From Breznakia blatticola (lineage in GTDB: Bacteria; Bacillota_I; Bacilli_A; Erysipelotrichales; Erysipelotrichaceae): a stretch of DNA of 32,000 nt. The stretch's first letter is position 1. Each line of letters begins with the position of its first letter. Positions 472-32,000 of this stretch are shown in pieces. The notes under the pieces were generated by a model. It saw only the letters and a list, made by a program, of their open reading frames with translations, had not been told where the DNA came from and ran no database searches. The translations under genes were made by a program, and so were the position numbers. The stretch lies in contig NZ_SODD01000006.1 of NCBI RefSeq assembly GCF_004365815.1, positions 1 to 32,000 on the forward strand. Direction: 5' to 3'.

Positions 472-1221
472 TTAGTATGGACTTTGATATGAACTACTTG
501 TACTATTATTGTCTGATTTACTTAAATTACACATTTTACAAGACAGTTGAATATTACATACATCATCTAATCCTCCATTACTTATAGCGACAATATGATC
601 AAAATGTCTTTCATCATCCTCTAACATTGTATATAAACCTGTTAAATCTTTTTTACAAAACACACAACATCCGTTATCTCTAAATATTACCGCTCGCTTT
701 ACCCATTTCGGAATATAACCCCTTTTTCTAACTTTTAAGTCAAATGAAGAAGCCATTTGCTCATTAAACCTTAACAAGAAATCTCTATTTTGAAATAAAA
801 TGTATTCCATTTCTATTGCAACGCTATAAATTATAGTCTCATAAAGATTTGCTTGTATCTTATCAATATAGTCAATATAAACATCGTATTTATCATAATA
901 ATCAATAGTATTCTCGAATATTTTCTCATCGATTACTAATTCAATATTTTTATACTTACTAATAGCTTGATTAAGCCAAAAAATAGGGTCAAAGTATGCA
1001 TTATCATTTTTTTCATCCATATATCTAACGTGTTCATCAAAGACGCTATCAACAAGCCAAAAACAGTATTCTCTTAAAATAGATACTTTAGGAAACTCAT
1101 CCACGATATGCAAAGGCTCAAAAAACTCAGCGTTTTTAGATAAATACTCAAATTTCCCCATAGACTCATTTGCTAACTGACAAAAATAATAAACATTAAA
1201 ATACTTCATATCTATTTGCAT
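472..1221 (-). CDS. HNH endonuclease domain protein with an unassigned N-terminal region of about 180 aa
   Basis: The C-terminus CCVFCKKD...HFDHIVAISNGGLDDVCNIQLSCKMCNLSK carries CxxC, HxDH, N and CxxCN, the classic HNH/zinc-finger core. GAGGAG lies 10 nt upstream of the ATG. Confidence 0.85.
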   Translation of the reverse strand: MQIDMKYFNVYYFCQLANESMGKFEYLSKNAEFFEPLHIVDEFPKVSILREYCFWLVDSVFDEHVRYMDEKNDNAYFDPIFWLNQAISKYKNIELVIDEKIFENTIDYYDKYDVYIDYIDKIQANLYETIIYSVAIEMEYILFQNRDFLLRFNEQMASSFDLKVRKRGYIPKWVKRAVIFRDNGCCVFCKKDLTGLYTMLEDDERHFDHIVAISNGGLDDVCNIQLSCKMCNLSKSDNNSTSSSYQSPY

Positions 1222-1331
1222 TATCTAAACACTCCTCACTAATACTGGTTCAGTTTTTGTTTTATATCATAGTTTTGTGTATCACATAGAGATTCCTATC
1301 ATTTTACACAGAAAAAGACTTTATTAATCAT

Positions 1332-2576
1332 CTATCTATCATAGAAATATTTCTCATTTAAATCATCAATTTGCGAGAAAATCTCCATTAGTACATTGAC
1401 TGCAATACTATTTCCAGCCAGTCTATATAATCGCTCTAAACTAAATAGACTGTATTTTGAAGACATATTAAAGTTATTATTCAATAGACTATTATAGTCA
1501 TCTTCTGAAAACCCCATTAGTAAAAAACATTCCCTTGGAGTCAAGTACCTGAAGTCAGATTTACCTTGACGATGTGGCATTGCAATCACACCTGAGTTTG
1601 GATGGCGATCTTGTTTTGTAGTAACTGTTGCAAGTATTTCATTCACTACATTTCCTTCATTATCAAGAATATGATGATTATCTCTATATATTCTTGCTCG
1701 AGACTTTGTATTATTTGGTTGAACGGATAATGCTTCGTTTAAATAGATCTCGTTAGCCATATTTAATCGCAAATAATTCTCTAGGTTTAATTCTACATTA
1801 GCATGAAAATTTGTTAAATCATTTTGTGAAAAATAATCATTTAATACTTGATCGAATCCCTGTGGTTGATCATTTATTCGAATACTCAACATATATGCTC
1901 TAACTCTTTTTTGCGGTAATCCGAAATTTTGAGCATTTAGCACCATCACTTTATTATAGTACCCATACTCTTCAAGTGTAACTAACCATTCATCAAAATT
2001 CGGCTTATTTCTTTTTCCTAGTATATTACTTACATTTTCCATTAATAAAAACCGAGGTTTTTCTTTATGAATAGTTTCCATTTCACTAAGTAATCTGTCA
2101 ATTTGCCATAACATGTTAGACCGATTTTCACTTAATCTATCAATCCCACCCTTATTTCCGTGCCAAAAACCAGCCACAGATAAATCTTGGCATGGAAATG
2201 AGTACGAAAGGCAATTACAATCATTTGGAATGTCAGTTGCACGCATTTCCATAATGCTGCCAACATTATTAGATCTTTCCTTTGCGCCTAAAATTCGACG
2301 TAGTACATCTGGTTTTTTATAAATCGAACTATTACTTTTAATCGGAACCTTTCCATTCATACTTAGTGAATAACGTTTAAACTCATTCATTACTTCTTCA
2401 TCAGTCATATTATTAAACTTAGAAAACTCCAAAGGACCATGATGAATTATATCATATGCTACCATTGCAGTAACATCCCAATCACATGTAACAAGAACTT
2501 CATGCTCAATTCCAGCATTTCGCAATGCCTTTCTTTGAGCACCTATTCCACTGAATGTCTCTGCTAACCTTATCAC
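1332..2576 (-). CDS. DNA (cytosine-5)-methyltransferase (Dcm-type)
   Basis: Motifs seen: I FSGIGA; IV SFPCQDLSVAG; VI LLMENVSNIL; VIII QKRVRAYML; IX RYLTPRECFLLMGF; X GNSIAVNVL. GTG start with GGGAGGA 5 nt upstream, 1 nt after the upstream stop codon. Confidence 0.95.
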   Translation of the reverse strand: MIRLAETFSGIGAQRKALRNAGIEHEVLVTCDWDVTAMVAYDIIHHGPLEFSKFNNMTDEEVMNEFKRYSLSMNGKVPIKSNSSIYKKPDVLRRILGAKERSNNVGSIMEMRATDIPNDCNCLSYSFPCQDLSVAGFWHGNKGGIDRLSENRSNMLWQIDRLLSEMETIHKEKPRFLLMENVSNILGKRNKPNFDEWLVTLEEYGYYNKVMVLNAQNFGLPQKRVRAYMLSIRINDQPQGFDQVLNDYFSQNDLTNFHANVELNLENYLRLNMANEIYLNEALSVQPNNTKSRARIYRDNHHILDNEGNVVNEILATVTTKQDRHPNSGVIAMPHRQGKSDFRYLTPRECFLLMGFSEDDYNSLLNNNFNMSSKYSLFSLERLYRLAGNSIAVNVLMEIFSQIDDLNEKYFYDR

Positions 2577-2577
2577 G

Positions 2578-3498
2578 TTATTCCTCCCACTTTGTTTTAA
2601 TCTGTCTACAATTCAATCCATTAAGATCAATTTGATACTGGATATTAGAAATGCTTTTTGGATATACATCATCTTTAAATGAATGTTTCGTAATTCTTGG
2701 AAACTTATCATCAATTGTATATTCCATTATGCTTAATAATCTAAATTTAATATTTCTTTCTGGCATATGCTTAGGGTATCCTAAATTGCCTAATTTTTCC
2801 TCTAGCTCTACTTTATGTTTTTCTGTAAATGTATTGCTTGCCAAAACATCATTGATAGAGATACCATTCATATCCACTTTTTCAAACCTGCAGAATAGTA
2901 ACTTTAAAGTTTTTTTTGAATCAAGTTGATACTCACTTGATATTGTAACAGCGCTACCATACCTAGCAACTGTCGACTTTACCTCATATCTACCTTTGTT
3001 TGTTTCAATATCGTTAACTCCATAGGTTTCAGCGAACCAGGTAGTATTCGGATTTCGTTCATAAATATTTTCATAACAAATCAACTCACCTAGTACATCA
3101 TAAATTCGCTTCGTTTTTATCGAATCTCCCAGTAGCTGTCTCCAAGATTCCCACCAAGCATACGGATTCGCAAAAGAACCATTTTTTAAATATTTGATGC
3201 CATTTAGTATAAACTCAGCACAAATAGACGAAAACTGTTCTCTTAAACCTTCTTCCTGTGTAACTAAAAGCAACCAACTTCCATCTCTGTTATTTATAAT
3301 TCTCTTTTTACTGCAAAGACTGACAGAGTTAAATTTTTCATCAATTTCAACTTCATAAAAGTTTTCAACCGCTATTCCATATTCTTTATTCGTACGAATT
3401 GTCCAAATTTCTAAGTCGCTATCCGCGTGAATACGCAAAGCTTGGTTATGATAAAGGTTTGCAAAATTTTTCTTCAAATCAAAACTGATATCATTCAT
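2578..3498 (-). CDS. PD-(D/E)XK motif protein (restriction-endonuclease fold, putative)
   Basis: YGVNDIETNKGRYEVKST gives D163-x8-E172-V-K174 (DNA about 2977-3012). The start overlaps the upstream stop as ATGA. The gene sits next to Z1, GHKL and Dcm genes, as do the annotated 'PD-(D/E)XK motif protein' families. Confidence 0.65.
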   Translation of the reverse strand: MNDISFDLKKNFANLYHNQALRIHADSDLEIWTIRTNKEYGIAVENFYEVEIDEKFNSVSLCSKKRIINNRDGSWLLLVTQEEGLREQFSSICAEFILNGIKYLKNGSFANPYAWWESWRQLLGDSIKTKRIYDVLGELICYENIYERNPNTTWFAETYGVNDIETNKGRYEVKSTVARYGSAVTISSEYQLDSKKTLKLLFCRFEKVDMNGISINDVLASNTFTEKHKVELEEKLGNLGYPKHMPERNIKFRLLSIMEYTIDDKFPRITKHSFKDDVYPKSISNIQYQIDLNGLNCRQIKTKWEE

Positions 3499-4163
3499 TG
3501 TTTTTCTCCATCTATAAAATAATTAAATAGGTAATCTACATATCCTACGAGACCGCCACTAAAAAAACATGGTTCTACCGTTTGAATCATTGCTGTATTT
3601 AAAATTAATACTTTTCTAAAGATATTTGTCGTTCTTTTCTTATAACTTGAATCCAGCAAAGAATATTTTAACATAATTTGACGATATAACGATATTAAAT
3701 ATCCTTTTCCACTACGCTCAACTAATTGCATTATTTCATCCGTCGAATTCCCTTCAACTACCTTAGTCGTTTCTTCAACACTACCTGCCCAACTTAAATG
3801 AATATACCACCAAAGTGTTTTCAACCATATTCTTCTCGATAGTTTATATAATCGGTCTTCATGCAAACCATTCCAACGGCTAGCAACTTGTTGAGGAAAA
3901 ACTTTTACCGATAAATATCTCCATACATCATCATTTGAAGCATCTCGTAAAGTAAAGTTTGCATCACGAAGATAAGAATACAGTGAGAGTCCAAATAAAT
4001 AATCAATTTTATATTTATTTTTCGTTGAAATTGCAATGTCTTTGTATATTTTTGCTAATCCATCATACAATTCTTGATATTCAGCATCAAAATCCGGTTC
4101 CAATTTATCAGTTGTAGATATAATTTCTTCACATTGACTTTTAGTTAATTCTTTCCAAACCAT
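3495..4163 (-). CDS. Hypothetical protein, 222 aa, no recognisable catalytic motif
   Basis: Long ORF inside a translationally coupled operon. GGGAGA ribosome-binding site. The start lies 4 nt after the upstream stop, and the stop overlaps the next start. Confidence 0.7.
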   Translation of the reverse strand: MVWKELTKSQCEEIISTTDKLEPDFDAEYQELYDGLAKIYKDIAISTKNKYKIDYLFGLSLYSYLRDANFTLRDASNDDVWRYLSVKVFPQQVASRWNGLHEDRLYKLSRRIWLKTLWWYIHLSWAGSVEETTKVVEGNSTDEIMQLVERSGKGYLISLYRQIMLKYSLLDSSYKKRTTNIFRKVLILNTAMIQTVEPCFFSGGLVGYVDYLFNYFIDGEKQ

Positions 4164-4167
4164 ATGA

Positions 4168-5103
4168 TTATCTCCCTATTTTCTCATTAAGTGTGTTTCG
4201 AATCGAATAAGATAATTTGTTTAAACTAGATACATCCCATTCAAAAGTAGTTAAAAAATAATGTATAGCTGCTGCAATAGAACCTTCTTGATAGTTTCCA
4301 CTTAAGATATTTTCCCAATCATTTTGATCACTTTTAATCTCATCAACTATAATCACTAATGCACTTGATATTATTTCGATTAATAGAGGAGATTTTTTAA
4401 TACTTAAACCTTCATTAATTATTTGAAATTGTGGGTGTGCACTATTCAAACATATTTGTAAATACTCCGAGGTGAAAGTTTCATTACATATATCTCCAAA
4501 TTCCATAAGGACACGCCATAAAGGAGCATTTGGTCTTGATTCAACTGTGATTGGAAACATTGATCCTCTTCCATCAAATATTAATTTAAATGGTAAAAAT
4601 TGTCCAAAAATTGTACCAGGAGTATTACAATAGAATTCATCTAAAAAATTCGGTTTCATACTTTCTAAATATATACTAAAATTAAAATCTACGACTCCAC
4701 GAAATTCACTTGCGTTTATTTTTTTTCGATAGTTGACCAATACCTTCTTATCCATTGGGTGTATTTCGTGAATTTTACATGATCCACGTTGTGATGAACT
4801 TACGGAATACCAATGTAAAGCGATTCCAAGCACTCCAAATGCATTTGTTACTCCTTCTTCACCAAACAAATGTCTTACATCAGTTATTTCCAACTCAACT
4901 TCAATTATTAATTCATTCTTTTGGGGACTGTAACCTGTCAAAGTAGAGACAATCTGATAGCTCATATTCTCTCTTTCAATATCGTCTATTTCAATTTCAC
5001 CTTCTTCATTTAGAAAAAAGAATTTTACATTATTTAGTGTAATTCCCATTAAGTCAAATAGATTTTCATCTATGGTGGGATACATGACAAATGAATTACT
5101 CAT
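4168..5103 (-). CDS. Hypothetical protein, 311 aa, no recognisable motif
   Basis: Long ORF. The ATG overlaps the stop of the GHKL gene by 8 nt. AAGAGG ribosome-binding site. Confidence 0.7.
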   Translation of the reverse strand: MSNSFVMYPTIDENLFDLMGITLNNVKFFFLNEEGEIEIDDIERENMSYQIVSTLTGYSPQKNELIIEVELEITDVRHLFGEEGVTNAFGVLGIALHWYSVSSSQRGSCKIHEIHPMDKKVLVNYRKKINASEFRGVVDFNFSIYLESMKPNFLDEFYCNTPGTIFGQFLPFKLIFDGRGSMFPITVESRPNAPLWRVLMEFGDICNETFTSEYLQICLNSAHPQFQIINEGLSIKKSPLLIEIISSALVIIVDEIKSDQNDWENILSGNYQEGSIAAAIHYFLTTFEWDVSSLNKLSYSIRNTLNEKIGR

Positions 5104-7183
5104 CTATTACCTCTTTTCCAATTACTTTTATTAGACCTTTAAAATCTCTAGAAATCGAACCAATACAAAGTTCGGCTCGAATCTTTCTGTTTTTTAAAGC
5201 GTTTCCTGAAAGCCGAATACAAAGGTAATTTTTTGTTGGTAAGTTATCCAAATTGCGGCCTCGCAATAACTTGCAAGTTATCCCCTCATATTGAGCATAA
5301 GGATTTTTATCGTCAATATATAACCCAATGCACTTGCCCTCTATTTTTTTGCCCATAATTGAATCAACATTAAAACTATATATAAAAAACGGAAATTCTT
5401 CATTGAATTCTTCCATCCAGTTTCTAAACGTAAAACTTCCAGTTTCTCTTTCAACACTTATAGTAATATCTATTTGATTATTATTTTTTCCGGTAAATAT
5501 CTCAACATCATTCTTTAAACCACGATTTGTAAGTTTTGAACTAGTTACCTTACAATTTGCATTCTTACCGGTAGCACTAAATGACTCACTTGACGCTCCA
5601 TTGCTTGATTTTATTAATGTACTACTTCTTCCAAACCCTGTTGAGGGCAATAATATCGCTGCAACCTGGCGACCTATCGCCTCGTCAATTTCAATTGTAT
5701 TAGATGCTGTATCTTCTTTATATTCATTAACTACAAACTTAGATACATGAGATTTAATCTTTCTTATTATTTTGTATTCCGGCTTGTCATCCCATCTAGA
5801 ATGATCACCTAACTCAATTGATCTAATGTATTGTTCCAAGTTATCATAATTTTCTCTACCATCCATTTGAAGCAGTTTATTTTCAGAATTAAGTTTAAAT
5901 ATTCCTATTAAATACTCATCTTCCTCAGTTTTTGGAATACCTCTTGTCCAATCGCTCTCAAATTCATAGTTAATAATTAAACAGGGTTTTCGAGTAAATG
6001 TAATTATAGGAAGGTTACCTTCAGTAGGAATGTCTAAACTGCAATAACTATATGGTGAAAAGTAGTTATGTGGTGGAGTCATCTTAAGTTCATATTTATT
6101 TACTTTAATAAACATTATTTTTCCTGCAAGTCTATTTGAACTAGAAGCAAACTCATTTGTTAGTATTACATCTTTGATTATCATTGGATTATGAAAACTA
6201 AGAAAGTAGCCCTCATTTTCATTATATAGTTCCTTTATAATTTTAAATAATGGCAAAATATCATTTTCGCTTAACACATTTCTATTTATAGACACTCTTA
6301 AAAATGGTCCATATTGATAATTGATATTATTGACACGCGGACCATACCACCTTTGAATTGCAACACGAAAATATGCACCCAAAGAATTTGTCCATGGATA
6401 TCTTGTATCATTATCACTATAAATCTGGTGAGCGTTATTAAGTAGATCTTCATCATTGACATAAGGAATTAATATAATTGTTCCAGTCTCTTCACCAAAG
6501 TATGGTGTTATATTAAAACAATGAAGAATTTCATTTATTTCTTCATCATCAGTGATCGGGCATGTTTCACCGGTATCTTTATACCTCTTGCCCCACCATG
6601 TTATACCAGCATAATTTTTGTACTTGTCTTTAGGAATAAATGTATCTTCCTTTTCATTCTCAACTAATGTGACAGCAAGTCGCTGTTGATATTGTCCATT
6701 GCTTAGCTTCACACGAGAATAATATAGCACCATTCCGATACCTACTCTAAAATACACTGTTTTCCCTAGCCCCCAAGAACCTCCTGCACCTTCTTGCTCT
6801 TGAGGCTTCATTATATGATAAATAAGTTTAAGCAAATTTCCTGCCTTATTACTCTCTGTAACTTCATCATCGCTCAAAGGACCTGTAAGTCCAACAGTAT
6901 TTTTATCAGAAAATGCTAAAAAACGATATCTATCCAATGGATATTTCAATGAAAAACTGTTATTTAGCTCATCCAAGTGTATTAGAAATTCTTTTGAATT
7001 AAAATCACCTGCTAAGACACCAAAATCAACATACTTTTTTGATAAATCCGATGCGTCCAAACTATTTTGAACAACCTCTCTAGTCAACAAGTCTAAAGTC
7101 GGAAGTTTATTATTTTGAATTGCACGAAACAATGAACTTCCTGTTTGTTGCATTCTACCATTTCTTAATACATCAATCTTCAT
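5096..7183 (-). CDS. GHKL-superfamily (HATPase_c / MORC-like) ATPase
   Basis: Bergerat-fold motifs: N-box EVVQNSLDAS; G1 DKNTVGLTG; G2 GAGGSWGLGKTVYF. I prefer the ATG at 7183 (AGGAA 7 nt upstream) over the track's TTG at 7207. Either start overlaps the Z1 gene stop at 7173. Confidence 0.8.
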   Translation of the reverse strand: MKIDVLRNGRMQQTGSSLFRAIQNNKLPTLDLLTREVVQNSLDASDLSKKYVDFGVLAGDFNSKEFLIHLDELNNSFSLKYPLDRYRFLAFSDKNTVGLTGPLSDDEVTESNKAGNLLKLIYHIMKPQEQEGAGGSWGLGKTVYFRVGIGMVLYYSRVKLSNGQYQQRLAVTLVENEKEDTFIPKDKYKNYAGITWWGKRYKDTGETCPITDDEEINEILHCFNITPYFGEETGTIILIPYVNDEDLLNNAHQIYSDNDTRYPWTNSLGAYFRVAIQRWYGPRVNNINYQYGPFLRVSINRNVLSENDILPLFKIIKELYNENEGYFLSFHNPMIIKDVILTNEFASSSNRLAGKIMFIKVNKYELKMTPPHNYFSPYSYCSLDIPTEGNLPIITFTRKPCLIINYEFESDWTRGIPKTEEDEYLIGIFKLNSENKLLQMDGRENYDNLEQYIRSIELGDHSRWDDKPEYKIIRKIKSHVSKFVVNEYKEDTASNTIEIDEAIGRQVAAILLPSTGFGRSSTLIKSSNGASSESFSATGKNANCKVTSSKLTNRGLKNDVEIFTGKNNNQIDITISVERETGSFTFRNWMEEFNEEFPFFIYSFNVDSIMGKKIEGKCIGLYIDDKNPYAQYEGITCKLLRGRNLDNLPTKNYLCIRLSGNALKNRKIRAELCIGSISRDFKGLIKVIGKEVIDE

Positions 7184-10031
7184 AATCAAATTCCTTATGT
7201 TTGGCAAGGTCTATTGTAATAGTAACAACGTGATTATCGTTTATTTTTTGTCCAGGCATTGTAATCATTAAACCAACAAGATCATCTACAGCACACATAT
7301 CTTCACGTGTTTTATTTATTTTATTAGAGTTTGAAAGATATTTATAATCCTTCTTTATACGATATATTGTCAGTAAAGGCGTTTTTTCTAAACCTACCAA
7401 TTTTCTATATGATTTATATTCTTGTGTGATTCTTTTTTGATTTCTACTTAAGCCTTTAAAATCAACACGTGATGCAAACTCTAATGGAACATCTGCAAGC
7501 AAATCAATTGGTGATCTTAAAATTCTTATATCAATAAGGTTTTTCTCGTCATTTTTTTCACTTATCAATTTTGAACGATTTGTTAATCCTAATCCATAAT
7601 TCTTTACCACCCAAGGATTTTGATCGTTAATTTTCCCTGATCCGTTAAATACGATGTTCCAGTTATCGTATTCTTGGCTAGAGTTAATTTCTTCAAACCA
7701 CTTTGTAAACTGTTCAATTTCGTGAAAAAAACTCGTTTCTTTTGGAGCTTGATAAACTTCCAAAAATGGTTTTATTACCTCGTTGAAATTGACGTTTCTA
7801 CAACAAAGACTTGTTCCGTCATGTGTAACATCAAAATCATCCAATTTTTGTATCAGTACATCTAAGTTTGCTAAGTTTGTAGCGACACTTTCTTCATTAT
7901 TAGAGAAAAGTGTAGTTTGTGTCGAGTACCCACTAAAATCAAAATTGGCATTGATTGCGGCTTGCATTTTATTTTTTGAAGTAATTGCTAGCCATGACAT
8001 TTTTGGTGTACTTTTAATGTTTACACCATATTCTTTTGGATCACATCCATTTTGAAAACGTTCTAAATCACTCCTTAACTCATAATCTAGCTCTGATAAG
8101 AATTCAAATTTTTCTTGTGCATCTGAATCCATCCAAATTCGAGGAAGTAGTTCATAACCTTTACGATACCCAAACCAACGTCCCATTTGCATTAATGTAT
8201 CTGCTTGCTTTACAGTACGAAGAAAATATGTAGAAACCAATCCTTCCATAGTTAATCCTCTAGATAAAGTACTCCCACCAATAACTATAAAAGCTGGAGC
8301 AAGGTTATCATCCTTTATTTCACTAGGATATGCTAAACGAACATGATCATCACTATCACGAGACATGTTGTTCGCGCAGTTATCAACACATATATGCAAA
8401 CCGTTATGATAGTTGAGATTCCCTTGTTCATCTAACTTTATATATGAAATCTTAGATAAAAGTTCTTCAATGTAAATTTCAATTTCTTCGAACATCGGAT
8501 AATCATTTATTTTTCTTGAGTTATAGTCATATAAAGGTAATGAATCTATGAATTTCCCTTTATCAAGTGCTGTTGTCTCGCGCATCCAAACTTTCTTGCA
8601 AGCTTCAATCGTTTGACTAACATTATGTTTATAACTTGTCAAAAGATTATGAAGAGAATGATAAATCGTATTGTGATCGGCTTGTCTTTGACTTACATGA
8701 ATTAATAACGTAACAGGTTTTCTACTTATCAAACTATTTACTTGAAAATGTCGCATAGTAGCTGCTGTACACAAAAACCATAATAAAGAATGCTCTAAAC
8801 TTTTTGGTGCACTAAAATTCAAATTACGTTCAGTTGCATTTTTTAACGCCTTTCTATCAAAATCGTCAGCATTTCTTACAATATCCATTCCATTATAGTC
8901 TTCAACACCACTAACACCAAAGATTTCTTGTGGACCAAAATATTCTTTTGTTTGATCTAAAAAATTTATAAAATTTCTTGGATATAAAGAGTCTATTGTT
9001 GATTCATTTAAAAAGTTTGCATATGGTGTAGCAGTGTATGACACATAATTTATTGCTTTCGCTTTAAAATCTTTATTTTTTATATATCCATTTTTTGTTC
9101 CTTCTACCAAGTCGATGATAAGTTTATTTATCTTTTTTCTCTCATCGTTAATTTCTTCAATTGACAGTGTTTCGTACATATTGCTTGTATTTACACTTGC
9201 CTGATCAGCCTCATCATCAATTATAAGAATCTTCATATTTTTATATTTATTTTCGTCATGATGAAGCCAATCATTTAACGCTTGTAGTCTTTTCGCATTT
9301 TTTAGACATACGGTAAAATATCTTTTTGATTGTCCATCATTAAAATTAAACAATTGTGATTCTTTAACAAAGCCACTTGAAGTAGACGGATGTTCAAGAA
9401 GTTGAAAACTAATATTGCAATTGTCTTGATAATTCAAATCGTTAATTAATCTTTCTTGTGTTTGAATTCTAAGATTATCGATAGTCCCGGATAAAACGAT
9501 GAACATATTCCATCCATAATCAGCAGCCATAGCTATCAAGCCAGCCATATTAGCAGTTTTTCCCGATTGTACATTTCCAACAACCATACCTTTTATTGAT
9601 CCAATTTGTCTTGTATCTATACTTAGTCTTTTAAGAGTTCTATGTGCACTGTCTTCAATTCCTGCAATGGCATCCTCATCGAATTTCTTTCTTTTTAGCA
9701 TTTTTCTGTAATTCACCCAAACAGTTTGATTTCCTTTAGGCACTTCAAATTCATTATTATCAGCTCCATTAGTGATAATCCCCGATTTTTTTGAATCCTT
9801 AAAAGCAATCATCTTTTCTTCACTCTCTTTTAATGATTTTACAATAGCATCCCATTCTTCAAGTGTAATTTCACAGAATCCATCTTCAAATACTTTACGA
9901 TTTAGAAATTCAACCAATCCTCTTTCATCTTTTTTAAGTCCTAGTGCAATATCATCCCAACTAATACCACGTTTTCTAGAATTACGTATCCAGTCACGGT
10001 ATTCATCATATCCTATTCCAAAAACATCCAT
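7173..10031 (-). CDS. Z1-domain protein with an SF2/DEAD-like P-loop NTPase core
   Basis: Walker A GNVQSGKTANMAG (aa 152-164); Walker B/DEAD IIDDEADQAS (aa 270-279); TATPYANF. The C-terminal block GGSTLSRGLTMEGL...DTLMQMGRWFGYRKGY is what I recognise as the Z1-domain signature. AAGGAGG ribosome-binding site. Confidence 0.85.
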   Translation of the reverse strand: MDVFGIGYDEYRDWIRNSRKRGISWDDIALGLKKDERGLVEFLNRKVFEDGFCEITLEEWDAIVKSLKESEEKMIAFKDSKKSGIITNGADNNEFEVPKGNQTVWVNYRKMLKRKKFDEDAIAGIEDSAHRTLKRLSIDTRQIGSIKGMVVGNVQSGKTANMAGLIAMAADYGWNMFIVLSGTIDNLRIQTQERLINDLNYQDNCNISFQLLEHPSTSSGFVKESQLFNFNDGQSKRYFTVCLKNAKRLQALNDWLHHDENKYKNMKILIIDDEADQASVNTSNMYETLSIEEINDERKKINKLIIDLVEGTKNGYIKNKDFKAKAINYVSYTATPYANFLNESTIDSLYPRNFINFLDQTKEYFGPQEIFGVSGVEDYNGMDIVRNADDFDRKALKNATERNLNFSAPKSLEHSLLWFLCTAATMRHFQVNSLISRKPVTLLIHVSQRQADHNTIYHSLHNLLTSYKHNVSQTIEACKKVWMRETTALDKGKFIDSLPLYDYNSRKINDYPMFEEIEIYIEELLSKISYIKLDEQGNLNYHNGLHICVDNCANNMSRDSDDHVRLAYPSEIKDDNLAPAFIVIGGSTLSRGLTMEGLVSTYFLRTVKQADTLMQMGRWFGYRKGYELLPRIWMDSDAQEKFEFLSELDYELRSDLERFQNGCDPKEYGVNIKSTPKMSWLAITSKNKMQAAINANFDFSGYSTQTTLFSNNEESVATNLANLDVLIQKLDDFDVTHDGTSLCCRNVNFNEVIKPFLEVYQAPKETSFFHEIEQFTKWFEEINSSQEYDNWNIVFNGSGKINDQNPWVVKNYGLGLTNRSKLISEKNDEKNLIDIRILRSPIDLLADVPLEFASRVDFKGLSRNQKRITQEYKSYRKLVGLEKTPLLTIYRIKKDYKYLSNSNKINKTREDMCAVDDLVGLMITMPGQKINDNHVVTITIDLAKHKEFDYED

Positions 10032-10202: not shown

Positions 10203-11747
10203 CTATTCAAACTCAATCGTCCCTGGAGGCTTACTAGTAATGTCTAATAGTACCCTATTCACATGATTAACTTCATTTACAATTCTACTCGAGATAACTG
10301 ATAGCACATTAAACGGAATATGTGCCCAGTCAGCAGTCATTCCATCAATTGATGTTACAGCGCGAATGGCAACTGCATAGTCATATGTTCTTTGATCTCC
10401 CATAACTCCAACAGAACGCATATTTGTAAGTGCTGTAAAGTATTGCCAAATCTCTCTATCTAATCCTGCTTTTGCAATTTCCTCACGTAGAATGAAATCT
10501 GAATCACGTACAATTTCTAGTTTCTCTTCAGTGATTTCACCAAGAACACGAATACCTAATCCTGGTCCTGGGAATGGTTGACGCCACACCATTGATTCAG
10601 GAAGCCCAAGTTCTGTACCTAATGCACGAACTTCATCCTTAAATAATGTATTTAATGGCTCAATTAATTTAAACTGCATATCTTCAGGTAATCCACCAAC
10701 ATTATGGTGTGATTTGATTGTTTGAGCTGTTTTTGTACCAGACTCAATAACATCTGTATATAATGTTCCTTGAGCTAACCACTTAATATCTTCTCCTTGA
10801 ACAAGTTTTTTCACTTCTTCATCAAATGTATAAACAAATTCATTACCAATGATTTTACGTTTTTCTTCTGGATCACTAACTCCAGCAAGCTTATTTAAGA
10901 AACGTTCTCTTGCATCTACTTTTGTAAGGTTGATGTTCATTTCTTTTCCAAACATCTCCATTACGCCTTCAGCTTCACCTTTACGTAATAATCCATGATC
11001 AATAAACATACAGTATAGTTGATCACCAATCGCTTTATGTAATAACGCTGCAACTACAGAAGAATCTACTCCACCACTAAGAGCAAGTAATACTTTATCA
11101 GTTCCTACTTGTTCACGGATCTTTGCGATTTCTGTATCGACAAAACTATGCATAGACCAATCAGCATCTGCATGACAAACTTCAAAGACAAAGTTTTTTA
11201 AAATATCATTCCCAAACTCTGAGTGACGTACTTCTGGATGAAATTGCAATGTATAAATATTCTTAGCTACATTGCTTGTTACTGCAAATGTGCATGTTGA
11301 ACTTGATGCGTCTTTTACAAATCCATCAGCAAGCTCACTTACTTGATCACCATGTGACATCCAAACAACTTGTTTTTTTGGCAATCCTTTGAAGATTGGT
11401 GAGTCATTCTCAATTTCGATTTCAGTTCTACCATATTCTTTTGAATCACATGCTTTAACCTTTCCACCATTCATATAGTGAGTCATTTGCATTCCATAAC
11501 AAATCCCTAGAATTGGAATCCCTGCTTCATATATTGCTTTATCTACTTTAAATGCATCTTCATCATAGACACTATTTGGTCCACCACTAAAGATAATCCC
11601 TCTAACATCACCTAATGCTTTAATTTCATCTAGACTCATATCATGTGGATGTAATTCACTATAAACTCCAAACTCACGAATACGTCTAGCAATCAACTGG
11701 TTATATTGACTACCAAAGTCTAATACAATAATTTTATCAGCCATCAT
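10203..11747 (-). CDS. guaA: GMP synthase (glutamine-hydrolysing)
   Basis: Full-length match to the GuaA pattern: GATase N-terminus ([27 protein letters not shown]), ATP-PPase SGGVDSS, C-terminal dimerisation domain ending PPGTIEFE. Confidence 0.97.
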
Positions 11748-28146: not shown

Positions 28147-28779
28147 TTACTCTCCTTTTTTATCTTTCGCGTTTGTTTCAAATACAAGTTCTTGTATACT
28201 ACTTACAACATCGACTACTTTTACGGATACGTAGTCTGGAACTTGTATATATTTATGCGTGAAATCAACGATTCCACGAATACCGTTTGCTATAAGTCGG
28301 TCCACAGTTTGTTGCACATTATCACTAATGGCAAGAATTGCAATACGACATCCTTCTGGCATTTCTTTTTCCAATTCATCGATTGGATAAACAGGTACGC
28401 CAAAACGAGTTCCTTGTCGATCTGGATTGCTATCAAAAGCAACTGCAATCTCCCCAACAACGTGGTCCCAATTGTTGTATTTTAGTAATGCACGTCCTAA
28501 ATTCCCTGCTCCTACTAAAATAATCTTCTCATCAAAATCCACACCTAATTGTTCATTAAATATTTCGATTAAGGTATCAATATCATACCCATATCCTTGC
28601 TTTCCTAAATTCCCCAATAAAGAAAAATCACGACGAATCGTCGTTGACTCAATTCCTGTTAAAGCACTTAAATCTTTAGACATGATTCTTTCATTTCCAT
28701 ATTTCTTCAATCGTCTAAGCGCTTTAAGATATACCGGATATCTTTGTAAGGTTGCCTTAGGTACTTTTCTACTTTCCAT
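28147..28779 (-). CDS. rex: Redox-sensing transcriptional repressor Rex
   Basis: [20 protein letters not shown]...[20 protein letters not shown]...GYGYDI...[12 protein letters not shown] (winged helix plus Rossmann GxGxxG). The start is moved to the ATG at 28779 (GGTGA ribosome-binding site); the track's 35 extra codons are leader sequence. Confidence 0.92.
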
Positions 28780-28904
28780 GTTTATCACCCATGTGTATTG
28801 TAACACATAAGTGCTACTTGTGAAATAATTAATTTTCGTCACAAGTGATTCTAATGAACATATAAAATGATATGTTTTATGCACTTCTTTTCACATATCT
28901 GCAA

Positions 28905-28932
28905 ATACAACAAAAGGCGAATAAACGCCTCT
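28905..28932 (-). terminator. Terminator-like hairpin between the ATPase gene and rex
   Basis: On the minus strand: (CAAG)AGGCG tttatt CGCCT, followed by TTTGTTGTATTT. Confidence 0.5.
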
Positions 28933-28971
28933 TGTTATCGTATGATTAACCCTCTCTGTTAACCTGTATAA

Positions 28972-29000
28972 ATCCTACACTTGAATAGCTAACTTGTCAA
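28972..29000 (-). promoter_or_regulatory. Candidate sigma-A promoter, TTGACA-17 nt-TAGGAT
   Basis: On the minus strand, the -35 TTGACA is at 29000-28995 and the -10 TAGGAT at 28977-28972, with an exact 17-nt spacer. Confidence 0.4.
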
Positions 29001-29002
29001 TT

Positions 29003-29019
29003 TTGTGAGTTTGTTCACA
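29003..29019. promoter_or_regulatory. Candidate Rex operator
   Basis: TTGTGAgtttgTTCACA matches the TTGTGAA-N4-TTCACAA Rex consensus, with TGTGA-N6-TCACA spacing. It lies 2 nt upstream of the candidate -35. Confidence 0.55.
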
Positions 29020-29058
29020 TGTGCTTCAATTTTATATGAGAGTTAAATTTGCATTTTA

Positions 29059-30663
29059 TTAAATCATTATATTTAAAGGCAATAAAAGTTTCTTAAATTC
29101 ACTTACATAAGACTCATTAAGTAAGTTGTATTTTACGACAGATTCATAATCTATTACATTTAAATTATCATTCATTAAGTATTTTTTTTGTGCATTGGCA
29201 TATTCTTCATCTTTTAAAGTTGCACTTAATATTACCTGTTTATTTAAACTTATATATATATCAATCATTTTCTTCTCTTTTGACGTTGATAACTCACCAT
29301 CTCTAAATGAATCTACTATTATCGGCAAGTCATGCTTTAACACATTCGATAAAGCAACAGTTCTACAAAAGTAATACTCATTTTCAGTACTACCTGAAAG
29401 AATCTTAGATGCTGTTGAAAAAATATCTTTATAAATCGTAGAGGTGTCTAATTCAATTTTTGCTTGAAGTTTGTTCATCTCATTTACTATATTATTTTTC
29501 ACTTCTAAAAACTTCTTGTTTTCATCTCCATTAATTGTTGAAGATATCTCTAAATCATTTTTTAGTTCAGATATCTCTACATCTAATTTTTCTATCTGCT
29601 CCAAATATTGGTTTACATTCTTAATTTCTTCATGATAAACCAAATAATCGAGAGTTTCTTTTGGTGTATTCATCATAAATGATCGCTTTGAATCGATTAT
29701 TTTAGCAATATTCAAATTATACTCTTCAACAATTTCGTTTTTAAGTAAAATTTGTCCTTCAATTGCTGAAATAATGTTTTTTCTAACATCCTTGTTGCTT
29801 GTATCGAATTGAAAGCCTTTTTTTATATATATCACTTTATCACTCCCACATTCTCCACAAATTAAGTTTCCCTCCTCAACCTTACGATTAAGAGAATTTA
29901 ACTCATGTATAAGTTCTTGAAGTTTTATAATCCTATTAATTTCTCTTGTTCTTTTTTTCTTTATTTCGATATGTTCGCTTTCCAATGTTTGTAACTGTAG
30001 TCGGACTGTCTCAGATTCTTCAATATCAATCGTCTTACTAACTGATTCAAATACTTTTTTATTGCTTTGAATAAATCTCACCTTTTTTTCTAAATTCTTT
30101 TTTTCGTCTTTTTTTAATTTAATATCGCTTTTAAGCTTTTCAAGATCTGAATTTGGTAAGATTGCATGTCCTGCGATACTGGCAATCATCTTCAAGAAGT
30201 CATCTTTATTACATCCCATTTTATTGATAATATTTGCCGGATTTCTTTTATCTTGAGGAATAATAGACATTTCATAATACACTGAAAAGTCTACAATTTT
30301 CTCCTTATTTGCTTTTTTATACTTTGGCAAGGGAATAATACTTGAATTTACAAAGTACTTAAACTCACTTATTGAATCGAAAATATGTAGTTTTTCATTT
30401 TCTATTAACAATATGCAATTTTTTCTTCGAACAATTTTTAGATCCTTTTCATTTATCGTGCACTCTAAGTAAGTATAGTAATTTTTTATATCTATTCCAT
30501 CAGGAAACGAATCTGAAGCACCTAGAGTATAACTTATGGATTGTAAAACAACCGTTTTTCCCTTGTTATTATCAAGGCTAAATAGGATATTAACTCCGTT
30601 ATTTATTCTACTTTCAACGTATGCTTCTTGTGAATTACCGATTGCCACTTTTTTAATTATCAT
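29059..30663 (-). CDS. Rad50/SMC-like ABC ATPase with a long coiled-coil insert and a central CxxC (LmuB-like architecture)
   Basis: Motifs by residue: Walker A NKGKT (aa 33-37); Q-loop IIPQD (aa 133-137); K/E/L-rich heptad-like region about aa 170-410; CGEC at aa 269-272 of 534; signature-like LSGS (aa 422-425); Walker B PIIVDSF (aa 447-453). AGGGGGA ribosome-binding site, and an 11-nt overlap with the upstream gene. Confidence 0.7.
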   Translation of the reverse strand: MIIKKVAIGNSQEAYVESRINNGVNILFSLDNNKGKTVVLQSISYTLGASDSFPDGIDIKNYYTYLECTINEKDLKIVRRKNCILLIENEKLHIFDSISEFKYFVNSSIIPLPKYKKANKEKIVDFSVYYEMSIIPQDKRNPANIINKMGCNKDDFLKMIASIAGHAILPNSDLEKLKSDIKLKKDEKKNLEKKVRFIQSNKKVFESVSKTIDIEESETVRLQLQTLESEHIEIKKKRTREINRIIKLQELIHELNSLNRKVEEGNLICGECGSDKVIYIKKGFQFDTSNKDVRKNIISAIEGQILLKNEIVEEYNLNIAKIIDSKRSFMMNTPKETLDYLVYHEEIKNVNQYLEQIEKLDVEISELKNDLEISSTINGDENKKFLEVKNNIVNEMNKLQAKIELDTSTIYKDIFSTASKILSGSTENEYYFCRTVALSNVLKHDLPIIVDSFRDGELSTSKEKKMIDIYISLNKQVILSATLKDEEYANAQKKYLMNDNLNVIDYESVVKYNLLNESYVSEFKKLLLPLNIMI

Positions 30664-31702
30664 AATATCCCCCTAACGTTACACTAATAATATATTTTGA
30701 AGACAGCTCAGATAATTCACTAGGCAAGTTAGTGATCTTATTCATTACATTTTGGTAGACATACTCTACATCATCACGTTTTCTGACTTCCTCAACTACG
30801 ACATCTAAAAAGCTAAATAATTCGACAGGATTATTTAGATTAAAAAAAGCACGACTAATTTCTGCATAGATTGATAGAATAATATCTTTTTGTTCTTCAT
30901 GACCTTTTTCATTCAAATAATTATTTGAAAACCGCAAGGGCGTACCAATAATATCATTGTTAAATAAATCATAACCAATAACTCTTGAAATTATAAATGA
31001 TTCAATGTTTTTTCTTTTTATATATTTTTTATATTTCTCACACTCCGATATTGAATTTATTTTTTCATTCTCTACACATATAAGTTTTAATGTCATTCTC
31101 ATAGTTGTAATTTCACCAAACATCATTTCTAATTTCGCATCATCTAGACTCTCTAACGCTTTCACAGGCAATGAATTGATTACATGCTCACTTTTCGTTC
31201 TGGAATCTACAACTATTTCAAGATTTGAAAAAAAATCAAAATAGACCTTTTCCTCAATAGATTTATGGTAATCGTGACCGTAAGATTTATCAATTTCATT
31301 ATAAAATGATTTCATAATTAAATCTTTTTTCTTTGGTTTAAAACAGTTTATATCCAATTTGATAAAATTTTCACCAGTATCAGGCGTAATTAAGTAATTC
31401 TTAGGCAAAACCCTACAGTATAAAACATATTGTTTAAAATATATATTAGAAAGGTGGTTGCTAAATAATGTAATTAATGATTCTCCAATTTTTGATGCAT
31501 TAAAGGAAGTGTAGTTTTTGGCTTGTGCATCGATTATATATTCAAATGCTAATGTGGAAGCTGATATATCATTAAACATGTCAACTAGAAAAATATCATC
31601 TACACTCTTGTTTTTTAGAGTATTCATTAAATAAAGCATAGCCTTCGTTTCATACTCTTCACCTTTAGGCATATTTTGTTCTGTTCTCTTGAATGTATAC
31701 AA
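30653..31702 (-). CDS. Restriction-endonuclease-like (PD-(D/E)XK / Mrr- or Cap4-like motif) protein, candidate effector (LmuA-like position)
   Basis: The N-terminal GEEYETKAMLYL...IFLVDMFNDIS...YIIDAQAKNY gives E16/E17, D41, and D58-A-Q60-A-K62 (DNA about 31517-31582). TTG start with GAGGTG 7 nt upstream. The nuclease assignment is an inference from a short motif. Confidence 0.5.
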   Translation of the reverse strand: MYTFKRTEQNMPKGEEYETKAMLYLMNTLKNKSVDDIFLVDMFNDISASTLAFEYIIDAQAKNYTSFNASKIGESLITLFSNHLSNIYFKQYVLYCRVLPKNYLITPDTGENFIKLDINCFKPKKKDLIMKSFYNEIDKSYGHDYHKSIEEKVYFDFFSNLEIVVDSRTKSEHVINSLPVKALESLDDAKLEMMFGEITTMRMTLKLICVENEKINSISECEKYKKYIKRKNIESFIISRVIGYDLFNNDIIGTPLRFSNNYLNEKGHEEQKDIILSIYAEISRAFFNLNNPVELFSFLDVVVEEVRKRDDVEYVYQNVMNKITNLPSELSELSSKYIISVTLGGYYDN

Positions 31703-31747
31703 ACATTCTCACCTCGTTCCTTAATTATGTAAATCGGCTCACAAATA

Positions 31748-31777
31748 ATTATACACTATTTATTTATATATTTGTAA
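31748..31777 (-). promoter_or_regulatory. Candidate promoter of the two-gene module (TTACAA-18 nt-TATAAT)
   Basis: On the minus strand, the -10 TATAAT is at 31753-31748 and the -35-like TTACAA at 31777-31772. Confidence 0.3.
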
Positions 31778-31818
31778 TCTATTTTTTTGTAGAAAATATC
31801 CATAAAATCGAATACGCA

Positions 31819-31856
31819 TATAAAAACAACGCCACTTTCTCAAGTTAGCGTTGTTT
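31819..31856 (-). terminator. Rho-independent terminator of the upstream GH1 gene
   Basis: On the minus strand: AACAACGC, a 15-nt loop, GCGTTGTT, followed by TTTATAT. Confidence 0.7.
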
Positions 31857-31871
31857 TATTATGTTTCATGT

Positions 31872-32000
31872 TTAATCCAAGTCTTCACCATTAGAAGTAA
31901 TTACTTTTTGCATCCATGCATAACTATCTTTTTTGATGCGTTTTGCACTACCTTTACCATAGTCATCAATGTCTACATAGATAAATCCATAGCGTTTACT
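31872..32000 (-). CDS. C-terminal 42 codons of a GH1 (6-phospho-)beta-glucosidase (partial)
   Basis: My own translation: SKRYGFIYVDIDDYGKGSAKRIKKDSYAWMQKVITSNGEDLD*. This is the typical GH1 C-terminus (KRYGFIYVD...R..K.S..W...VI..NG). Confidence 0.85.
   Translation of the reverse strand, partial: SKRYGFIYVDIDDYGKGSAKRIKKDSYAWMQKVITSNGEDLD

Follow-up and report, generated by a model that had tools for sequence, protein, structure and literature searches.

In the first 32,000 nucleotides of a Breznakia blatticola contig (NZ_SODD01000006.1; hereafter the window), we examined two adjoining minus-strand genes, here called A and B, that are annotated as hypothetical proteins and that we propose to form a divergent, two-gene Lamassu-type defence module. 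Gene A (30653..31702) is an open reading frame (ORF) of 349 aa with a TTG start that would encode an LmuA-like effector; gene B (29059..30663) starts with ATG and would encode a 534-aa LmuB-like ATP-binding cassette (ABC) ATPase of the Rad50/SMC type. The original prediction, made from the sequence alone, had described two minus-strand ORFs overlapping by 11 nt, and the ORF coordinates bear this out. At the A/B junction (30653..30676, minus strand, read directly from the sequence), the stop of A lies with the start of B in an overlap at 30653-30663. A Shine-Dalgarno sequence for B (AGGGGGA, 30674-30668) is located within the 3' end of A, 5 nt ahead of the B ATG, and together with the overlap it suggests that the two genes are translationally coupled. 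Direct reading of the 5' region of the module (31703..31819, minus strand) revealed a second Shine-Dalgarno sequence (GAGGTG, 31715-31710) 7 nt ahead of the TTG codon and, further upstream, a perfect -10 hexamer (TATAAT, 31753-31748) with a weak -35, which we infer to be the promoter of the module. A sigma-70 consensus scan of the A+T-rich region returned 20 sites against 21.8 expected from shuffled sequence and thus no excess. The N-terminus of A follows the pattern M(x)YTF/YxF..(T/S)E in 22 of 22 aligned homologues, with Y2 and E8 invariant. Because of this conserved MYTF..E N-terminus and the position of the GAGGTG sequence, the TTG at 31702 is supported as the true start of A; the database entry for the protein (P0001, sources NCBI/nr; 339 aa) is 10 residues shorter at this end, as would result from a start at M11. 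The flanking intergenic DNA holds only spurious ORFs (31 aa or less) and no third gene.

Both proteins matched, end to end, the models of a phage defence candidate in the PADLOC database, a search that the original prediction had proposed. PDC-M22A matched A at 1e-238 (residues 11-349 against 1-339 of 339) and PDC-M22B matched B at 9.2e-178 (residues 1-532 against 1-532 of 535), which identifies the pair, at the sequence level, as the same family as PDC-M22. PDC (‘phage defence candidate’) systems were compiled from genes found inside BREX, DISARM or type I restriction-modification (RM) loci, an approach termed ‘guilt-by-embedding’ (Payne et al., bioRxiv 10.1101/2024.01.29.577857), and the derivation of PDC-M22 from such embedded genes is an independent hint at a defence role. 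PDC-M22 is the PADLOC-DB v2 cassette CAS_00094 (FAM_01214>>FAM_00652) (supplementary table; bioRxiv 10.1101/2024.01.29.577857), where it carries the figure 162, which we take here as the number of RefSeq instances. It is a name only, with no attached function or mechanism: a full-text literature search found PDC-M22 in the main text of none of the papers covered, nor any statement there of a relation to Lamassu. Scans of A, B and 58 family members (23 and 35, respectively) against Pfam and NCBIfam returned chance-level matches only (CTK3, SipD, DUF3287). The original prediction could not establish homology to DUF4297 or DUF3732 by eye, and neither Pfam model matched any member of either family.

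The evidence that ties the pair to Lamassu is strongest for protein B. Its architecture combines a Walker A motif (G35-K36-T37), a Q-loop (Q137-D138), a coiled coil at residues ~172-403, a signature motif (S423-G-S425) and a Walker B motif (I-I-V-D451-S). The motifs that the original prediction had picked out by eye (G35-K36-T37, Q137, L-S423-G-S425 and I-I-V-D451) are all present and 100 % conserved in 121 family sequences, in which GKT, Q137-D138, C269, C272, S423-G-S425 and D451 are invariant. Several PADLOC LmuB models matched B, at 6.2e-17, 3.2e-12 (residues 10-530 against 14-559 of 565) and 4.7e-12. The single sequence of B found no match among PDB sequences; a profile built from 35 family members had one genuine match there, the 562-aa LmuB of entries 9ux7/9ux8 (E = 7e-8, residues 20-492 against 21-534). 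These entries appear to be the type I LmuAB of Bacillus cellulasensis NIO-1130 (bioRxiv 10.1101/2025.06.23.660979). Every landmark of the ATPase is paired in the profile alignment: Walker A (NNKGKT with NTKGKS), the Q-loop (GQDK with DQDD), the apical CxxC (CaeCgS with CQYCHS), the signature (FSGS with ISGS) and Walker B (IIIDSF with FCMDSF). The last pair overturns one element of the original prediction, which had considered the C-terminal head (‘IIVDSFRDGE’) unlike Lamassu. Its ‘DSF’ aligns with the ‘MDSF’ of 9ux7 LmuB and is typical of the deviant Walker B of short LmuB proteins. The LmuB of short Lamassu systems combines a prototypical Walker A with a deviant Walker B of the form hhhhD[Q/S/T/E] and carries from 0 to 2 CxxC zinc hooks (PMC12663957). 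The D451-S452 of B fits that form; across the family, the position that follows D451 holds S, C or A in 120 of the 121 sequences, and the variants C and A are outside the published set. The length of B and its short coiled coil also fit the short LmuB proteins (~600 aa versus ~800 aa). Pfam is blind to this relationship, with no match of B to DUF3732 (PF12532), the original LmuB signature, at E <= 1, none in the 35 family members, and weak AAA_23 matches in only 2 of the 35.

The predicted structure of B leads to the same relatives. An AlphaFold model (predicted local distance difference test, pLDDT, 82; predicted template modelling score, pTM, 0.63) shows an ABC head whose two parts are separated by an antiparallel coiled coil (~172-257 and 291-403), in agreement with the coiled coil claimed by the original prediction, and a beta-hairpin at the apex with the zinc-hook motif C269-x-x-C272. 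Foldseek ranked 9ux7_A, from an LmuAB-DNA complex, first among the matches of the model (1.5e-19), followed by B. subtilis YydD and the LmuB proteins of Salmonella and Vibrio (~1e-11) and then by SMC, Rad50, MukB and JetC. Profile and predicted fold thus identify B as a full-length, divergent homologue of type I LmuB. Its likeness to 9ux7 LmuB covers a short length (~530-560 aa), Walker A, the QD of the Q-loop, a single CxxC, SGS and ‘DSF’. The invariant CxxC of the B family differs from the Vibrio cholerae protein (VcLmuB), which has no zinc hook (PMC12663957). The motif is more likely an inter-subunit zinc hook, as in Rad50, than an intramolecular ribbon, because each chain has just one conserved CxxC pair. 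Weak Pfam ‘A2L zinc ribbon’ matches were seen in 7 of the 35 family members (best E = 0.0035), and we assume that they fall at the CxxC apex (B residues ~262-290).

Protein A is predicted to have an N-terminal nuclease domain of the Cap4/PD-(D/E)xK type (~1-110), a middle region and a C-terminal helical bundle (~181-349). In the AlphaFold model (pLDDT 85.8, pTM 0.84), the N-terminal core has the PD-(D/E)xK topology, with the order alpha(12-28)-beta-beta-beta-alpha(69-84)-beta. The residues that the original prediction had noted as a possible nuclease motif (E18, D41/D45 and D58-A-Q60-A-K62) are present and 99-100 % conserved in 125 sequences (E18, D41, D45 and K62, 100 %; D58 and Q60, 99 %). 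They map to alpha1, on or next to beta1/beta2, and to beta3 of the predicted core. The catalytic lysine of published LmuA proteins is K59 in the B. cellulasensis protein (BcLmuA) and K57 in that of V. cholerae (VcLmuA), and K62 of A occupies a comparable position. The best Foldseek matches of the model were without exception Cap4-type nucleases, with LmuA first (Salmonella 9hr5, 2.3e-5; 9nxx; Vibrio 9uxl), in alignments of ~390-400 columns that span both domains. Next came DUF4297-HerA, Cap4 and Hachiman HamA, with fold probabilities of 0.92-1.0 over ~240-340 columns. Cap4 of CBASS, DUF4297 and HamA share with A the nuclease fold of the N-terminus; they differ from it in their partners (SAVED, HerA and HamB, respectively) and in having neither the LmuA-type C-terminal domain nor an SMC-like partner. 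By its predicted fold, A thus appears to be an LmuA-like Cap4/PD-(D/E)xK nuclease with a helical C-terminal domain, whose closest structures are the solved LmuA proteins. As modelled, it resembles BcLmuA in the Cap4-type N-terminus, the similar position of the lysine and the helical C-terminal domain. We also considered whether A is modular, as in two metagenomic sequences the N-terminal ~150 residues of the A family are fused to a Mur-ligase middle domain (P0279) or a PtuA (PDC-M01A) C-terminus (P0286). We judged both to be chimeric or disrupted gene calls, probably due to chimeric assembly or to an insertion into the gene, and not evidence of modularity.

The organisation of the pair is that of type I Lamassu. 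Systems of this type (short clade S) consist of LmuA and LmuB, have lost LmuC and have shown antiphage activity (PMC12663957; bioRxiv 10.1101/2025.06.23.660979). Here, A and B lie on the same strand, overlap by 11 nt and have no lmuC. The effector-then-ATPase order, which the original prediction had taken as its cue, is indeed the published layout of type I LmuAB, as found in B. cellulasensis NIO-1130. Type II systems (LmuACB/DdmABC) of V. cholerae and Salmonella enterica (9hqu, 9hqx, 9hr5, 9uxh, 9uxl) resemble the pair in the folds of LmuB (E ~1e-11) and LmuA, the Cap4 nuclease effector and the short coiled coil. They have, however, a third gene, lmuC, between A and B, for which there is no room here because the genes overlap. 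Among the Lamassu features that we tested, the pair lacks only the legacy Pfam signatures and the recognition of LmuA at the sequence level. We therefore read A and B as an acquired two-gene anti-phage or anti-plasmid module, a type I Lamassu system (LmuA-LmuB, no LmuC) of a very divergent sub-family, PDC-M22, and put the probability of this reading at roughly three in four. The LmuB matches of B in sequence and fold and the LmuA matches of A in fold thus lend support to the short, divergent Lamassu-type system first proposed from the layout.

Several observations weigh against this assignment. PDC-M22 is listed as a candidate only and was added to PADLOC untested (bioRxiv 10.1101/2024.01.29.577857). 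At the sequence level, A matches neither Pfam DUF4297 nor the PADLOC LmuA models nor any Cap4 model; the nuclease assignment is therefore drawn from its predicted fold and motif. Searches of PDB sequences gave chance matches only with the single sequence of A and chance Sec7-domain matches only with the A-family profile. An exhaustive search of 1.84 billion representatives with the same profile found no bridge to DUF4297 or LmuA among the best 150 of 369 clusters, all 150 of which belonged to its own ~340-aa family. B, for its part, is only ~17 % identical to the B. cellulasensis LmuB (BcLmuB) in a structural alignment and its profile matches that protein at just 7e-8; mechanistic details may therefore differ. 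The Foldseek TM-scores are modest (0.41-0.47) and the root-mean-square deviations large, as flexible two-domain or coiled-coil proteins would lead one to expect, and this limits precision for both proteins. A and B are also shorter than their type I counterparts and go under a separate PADLOC candidate name, with no Pfam match to DUF4297 or DUF3732.

The separate listing as PDC-M22, the missing LmuA, DUF4297 and DUF3732 matches and the low identity of B to BcLmuB would also suit an independent system of a nuclease and an SMC-like protein, whose likeness to Lamassu comes from common Rad50/SbcC ancestry and which might restrict plasmids by loop extrusion, as Wadjet does, or resect DNA ends directly. 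We consider this rather unlikely, because B matches LmuB proteins best in both sequence and fold, with type I first and, in E-value, at least 7 orders of magnitude ahead of Rad50, SMC and JetC. B and 9ux7 LmuB have the deviant DSF Walker B and the aligned CxxC in common, and the best fold matches of A are LmuA proteins over the full length. Furthermore, the coiled coil of B (~230 aa) is far shorter than those of loop-extruding SMCs, and the pair has no kleisin, KITE or JetD-like partner genes.

To place the locus, we compared it with 80 Erysipelotrichaceae genomes that carry rex, with asnS next to it in all but three short or truncated loci, and recovered up to 10 kb of DNA on each side of rex where the contig permitted. 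None of the 80 has A or B near rex within the recovered DNA, so that the pair is not present in all relatives, which the original prediction would have taken as a refutation, and is accessory, as that prediction had claimed. In the closest relative, ‘Erysipelotrichaceae bacterium MTC7’ (Rex 96 %, AsnS 98 % and the tail of the GH1 gene 93 % identical), GH1 and rex are 1.36 kb apart versus 3.09 kb here. Homology to this strain stops exactly at the GH1 stop (31872), returns for a 40-bp element (29032-28994, 95 %) and then again from 28847 into rex. Because it breaks at the GH1 stop and resumes at the 40-bp element, the comparison identifies the acquired segment as 29033-31871. The original prediction had proposed to check whether rex and the GH1 gene adjoin where the pair is missing. 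MTC7 keeps both genes, yet the slot between them (L005 8643-9990) is filled with unrelated cargo, namely a 149-aa ORF without a family and, past the 40-bp element, an ORF of 178 aa that faintly matches a Csx1/Csm6 HEPN region (E = 7e-4). The absence of the pair near rex in the relatives and the other cargo in MTC7 mark it, by genome comparison, as accessory, strain-specific and horizontally acquired. The GH1-rex slot may be a small hot spot of gene variation, possibly involving defence genes.

Elsewhere, the two genes travel together. In 13 of 13 loci (the window and 12 further), A immediately precedes B and the two genes abut or overlap, and the 12 further loci all have the two-gene layout without lmuC. 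The chromosomal pairs are those of Pectobacterium, adjoining an IS3 transposase; Flavobacterium, among genes for a relaxase, MobC, AbiGi and a KAP NTPase; Aliarcobacter, near a resolvase, SIR2_2 and adenosine deaminase; and ‘Bacilli bacterium PM5-9’. Plasmids of Paenibacillus larvae and Cytobacillus firmus carry the pair flanked by IS21, IS110 and IS200 elements and integrases, and six IMG/VR contigs carry it in viral, prophage-like contexts. Two independent IMG/VR contigs (L088 2141-8783 and L091 2372-9126) have it with a late transcriptional regulator (phrog_36) on one side and the genes of the small and large terminase on the other. By gene order, this is a classic accessory slot of temperate phages, which points to the module as phage cargo as well. 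A tblastn search of the GenBank phage collection gave no match. The distribution is patchy and includes Bacillota, Gammaproteobacteria, Bacteroidota and Campylobacterota, and the contexts indicate that the pair moves on plasmids, prophages and islands rich in insertion sequences (IS). The Aliarcobacter butzleri island has further genes of interest. Directly 3' of the pair (L003 7696-10012) are genes for an adenosine deaminase, a Ham1-like NTP pyrophosphatase, a SIR2_2 protein and a resolvase, which may amount to a further defence cassette of this island, directed at nucleotides. Upstream are genes for an SMC_N/AAA_23 ATPase and a metallophosphoesterase, SbcCD-like in look.

Such mobile contexts could also suggest a selfish addiction or stabilisation module, akin to a toxin-antitoxin system, in which B restrains the nuclease A and the pair maintains its carrier element. 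Published Lamassu systems are toxic when over-expressed and their effector is kept inactive by LmuB. The pair is, nevertheless, chromosomal in the window, with no mobility gene, repeat or att site adjoining it; its family came to light among genes located inside BREX, DISARM or type I RM loci; and its closest characterised relatives provide phage and plasmid defence. Addiction as the main role is, therefore, quite improbable, although addiction and defence are not mutually exclusive. A host housekeeping or DNA-repair complex that processes ends like SbcCD/Rad50-Mre11 rather than providing immunity is very improbable: B does have the ABC head, coiled coil and CxxC hook of Rad50, significant fold matches to Rad50 and SMC structures, housekeeping genes as neighbours and, in one source, a homologue labelled ‘DNA repair exonuclease SbcCD ATPase subunit’, but the pair is missing at the locus in all 80 related genomes, including one with a 98 % identical AsnS, is scattered across phyla on plasmids, prophages and IS-flanked islands, adjoins in Aliarcobacter a separate ATPase-metallophosphoesterase pair of SbcCD-like look, and has in A no Mre11/SbcD phosphoesterase (no Metallophos match) but a predicted PD-(D/E)xK fold. 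Complexes of the Rad50/SbcC-Mre11/SbcD type are the proposed evolutionary ancestor of Lamassu (PMC12663957). They differ from the pair in their much longer coiled coil, canonical Walker B and metallophosphoesterase partner and in being encoded by core genes.

If A and B are a type I Lamassu system, a mechanism can be proposed by analogy with BcLmuAB, VcLmuACB and the S. enterica system, SeLmuACB. A dimer of B, probably joined by the zinc hook, would hold one inactive monomer of A through the C-terminal domain of the latter. The heads of B would bind DNA ends or replication intermediates of the invader, with moderate ATP turnover to follow. A would then be released and oligomerise, presumably as a tetramer, so that two nuclease domains pair. 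The resulting non-specific cleavage of DNA by A would abort the infection.

The neighbourhood of the module agrees with the original description, with a GH1 gene and its terminator upstream and rex and asnS downstream. The upstream gene runs off the window and ends at 31872 with a GH1-type C-terminus (‘...KRYGFIYVD...SNGEDLD’, then the stop) that is 93 % identical to the end of a complete 485-aa ORF in the closest relative, itself starting with a GH1-like motif. The intrinsic terminator of this gene (31820..31857, minus strand; -19.4 kcal/mol, z = -5.9, followed by a U run) is the upstream boundary of the variable segment. Downstream, a 13-bp stem-loop (28908..28938, minus strand; -18.4 kcal/mol, z = -5.5) located ~120 nt 3' of the B stop is the likely terminator of the A-B transcript. 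The 40-bp element shared with the closest relative (28994..29032, minus strand; blastn, 95 % identity to L005 9183-9222) has DNA on both sides that is unrelated between the two strains by blastn, and this alignment makes it the downstream boundary of the variable segment. It contains a Rex-operator-like palindrome (TGTGAACAAACTCACA) followed by TTGACA, within a promoter-like pair (TTGACA/TAGGAT). After the element come ~35 nt, the strong 13-bp hairpin, 130 nt and rex; in MTC7 the 178-aa ORF follows the same element. In the window, the element may be a rex leader or else an orphan promoter-terminator that stayed behind when that ORF was lost. The mechanically called rex ORF (28147-28884, minus strand; 245 aa, GTG start) is over-extended, as relatives align from residue 36, and Rex is probably a protein of 210 aa that starts at 28779 (28147-28779). 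The G+C content is 27-29 % in the module versus 35-37 % in rex and asnS. Searches for flanking direct or inverted repeats and att sites gave only A+T-rich chance matches, and no mobility gene adjoins the pair at this locus.

The window has a second cluster of defence-like genes, far from the module, on the minus strand at 472-10031 and beside guaA (10203-11747). It comprises genes for an HNH endonuclease (472-1221), a C-5 cytosine methyltransferase (1332-2576) and a DUF4420 PD-(D/E)xK protein with a weak MzaD match (2578-3498), along with three proteins of 222, 311 and 703 aa that have no confident family (the 703-aa protein partially matches PDC-M33A) and a 952-aa Z1-domain protein that PADLOC matches to MzaC at 7e-52. 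From these matches, it looks like an Mza-like or Dcm-associated restriction cluster.

The assignment proposed here would connect an anonymous candidate, PDC-M22, with systems whose mechanism is understood, those of type I Lamassu, and provide it with a concrete mechanism. The Pfam DUF4297 and DUF3732 models, NCBIfam and the PADLOC LmuA models all miss the PDC-M22 branch, and Lamassu prevalence may be under-counted because the standard domain models do so. More tentatively, and with the odds against it, PDC-M22 could be a distinct minimal Lamassu lineage, defined by the smallest LmuB so far (~535 aa), an obligate, invariant zinc hook, an LmuA with both its Cap4-like nuclease and its C-terminal domain beyond sequence recognition, a spread over at least 4 phyla and carriage by temperate phages at the late-regulator/terminase position. 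If so, its trigger, or the way in which it sequesters or oligomerises the effector, may differ from those of BcLmuAB and VcLmuACB, and it would be a compact model of a two-protein SMC-like sensor without LmuC. General concepts are unchanged by the finding. For this gut Erysipelotrichaceae strain, the pair would represent defence genes peculiar to the strain, carried in a short variable region that separates rex from a sugar-utilisation gene.

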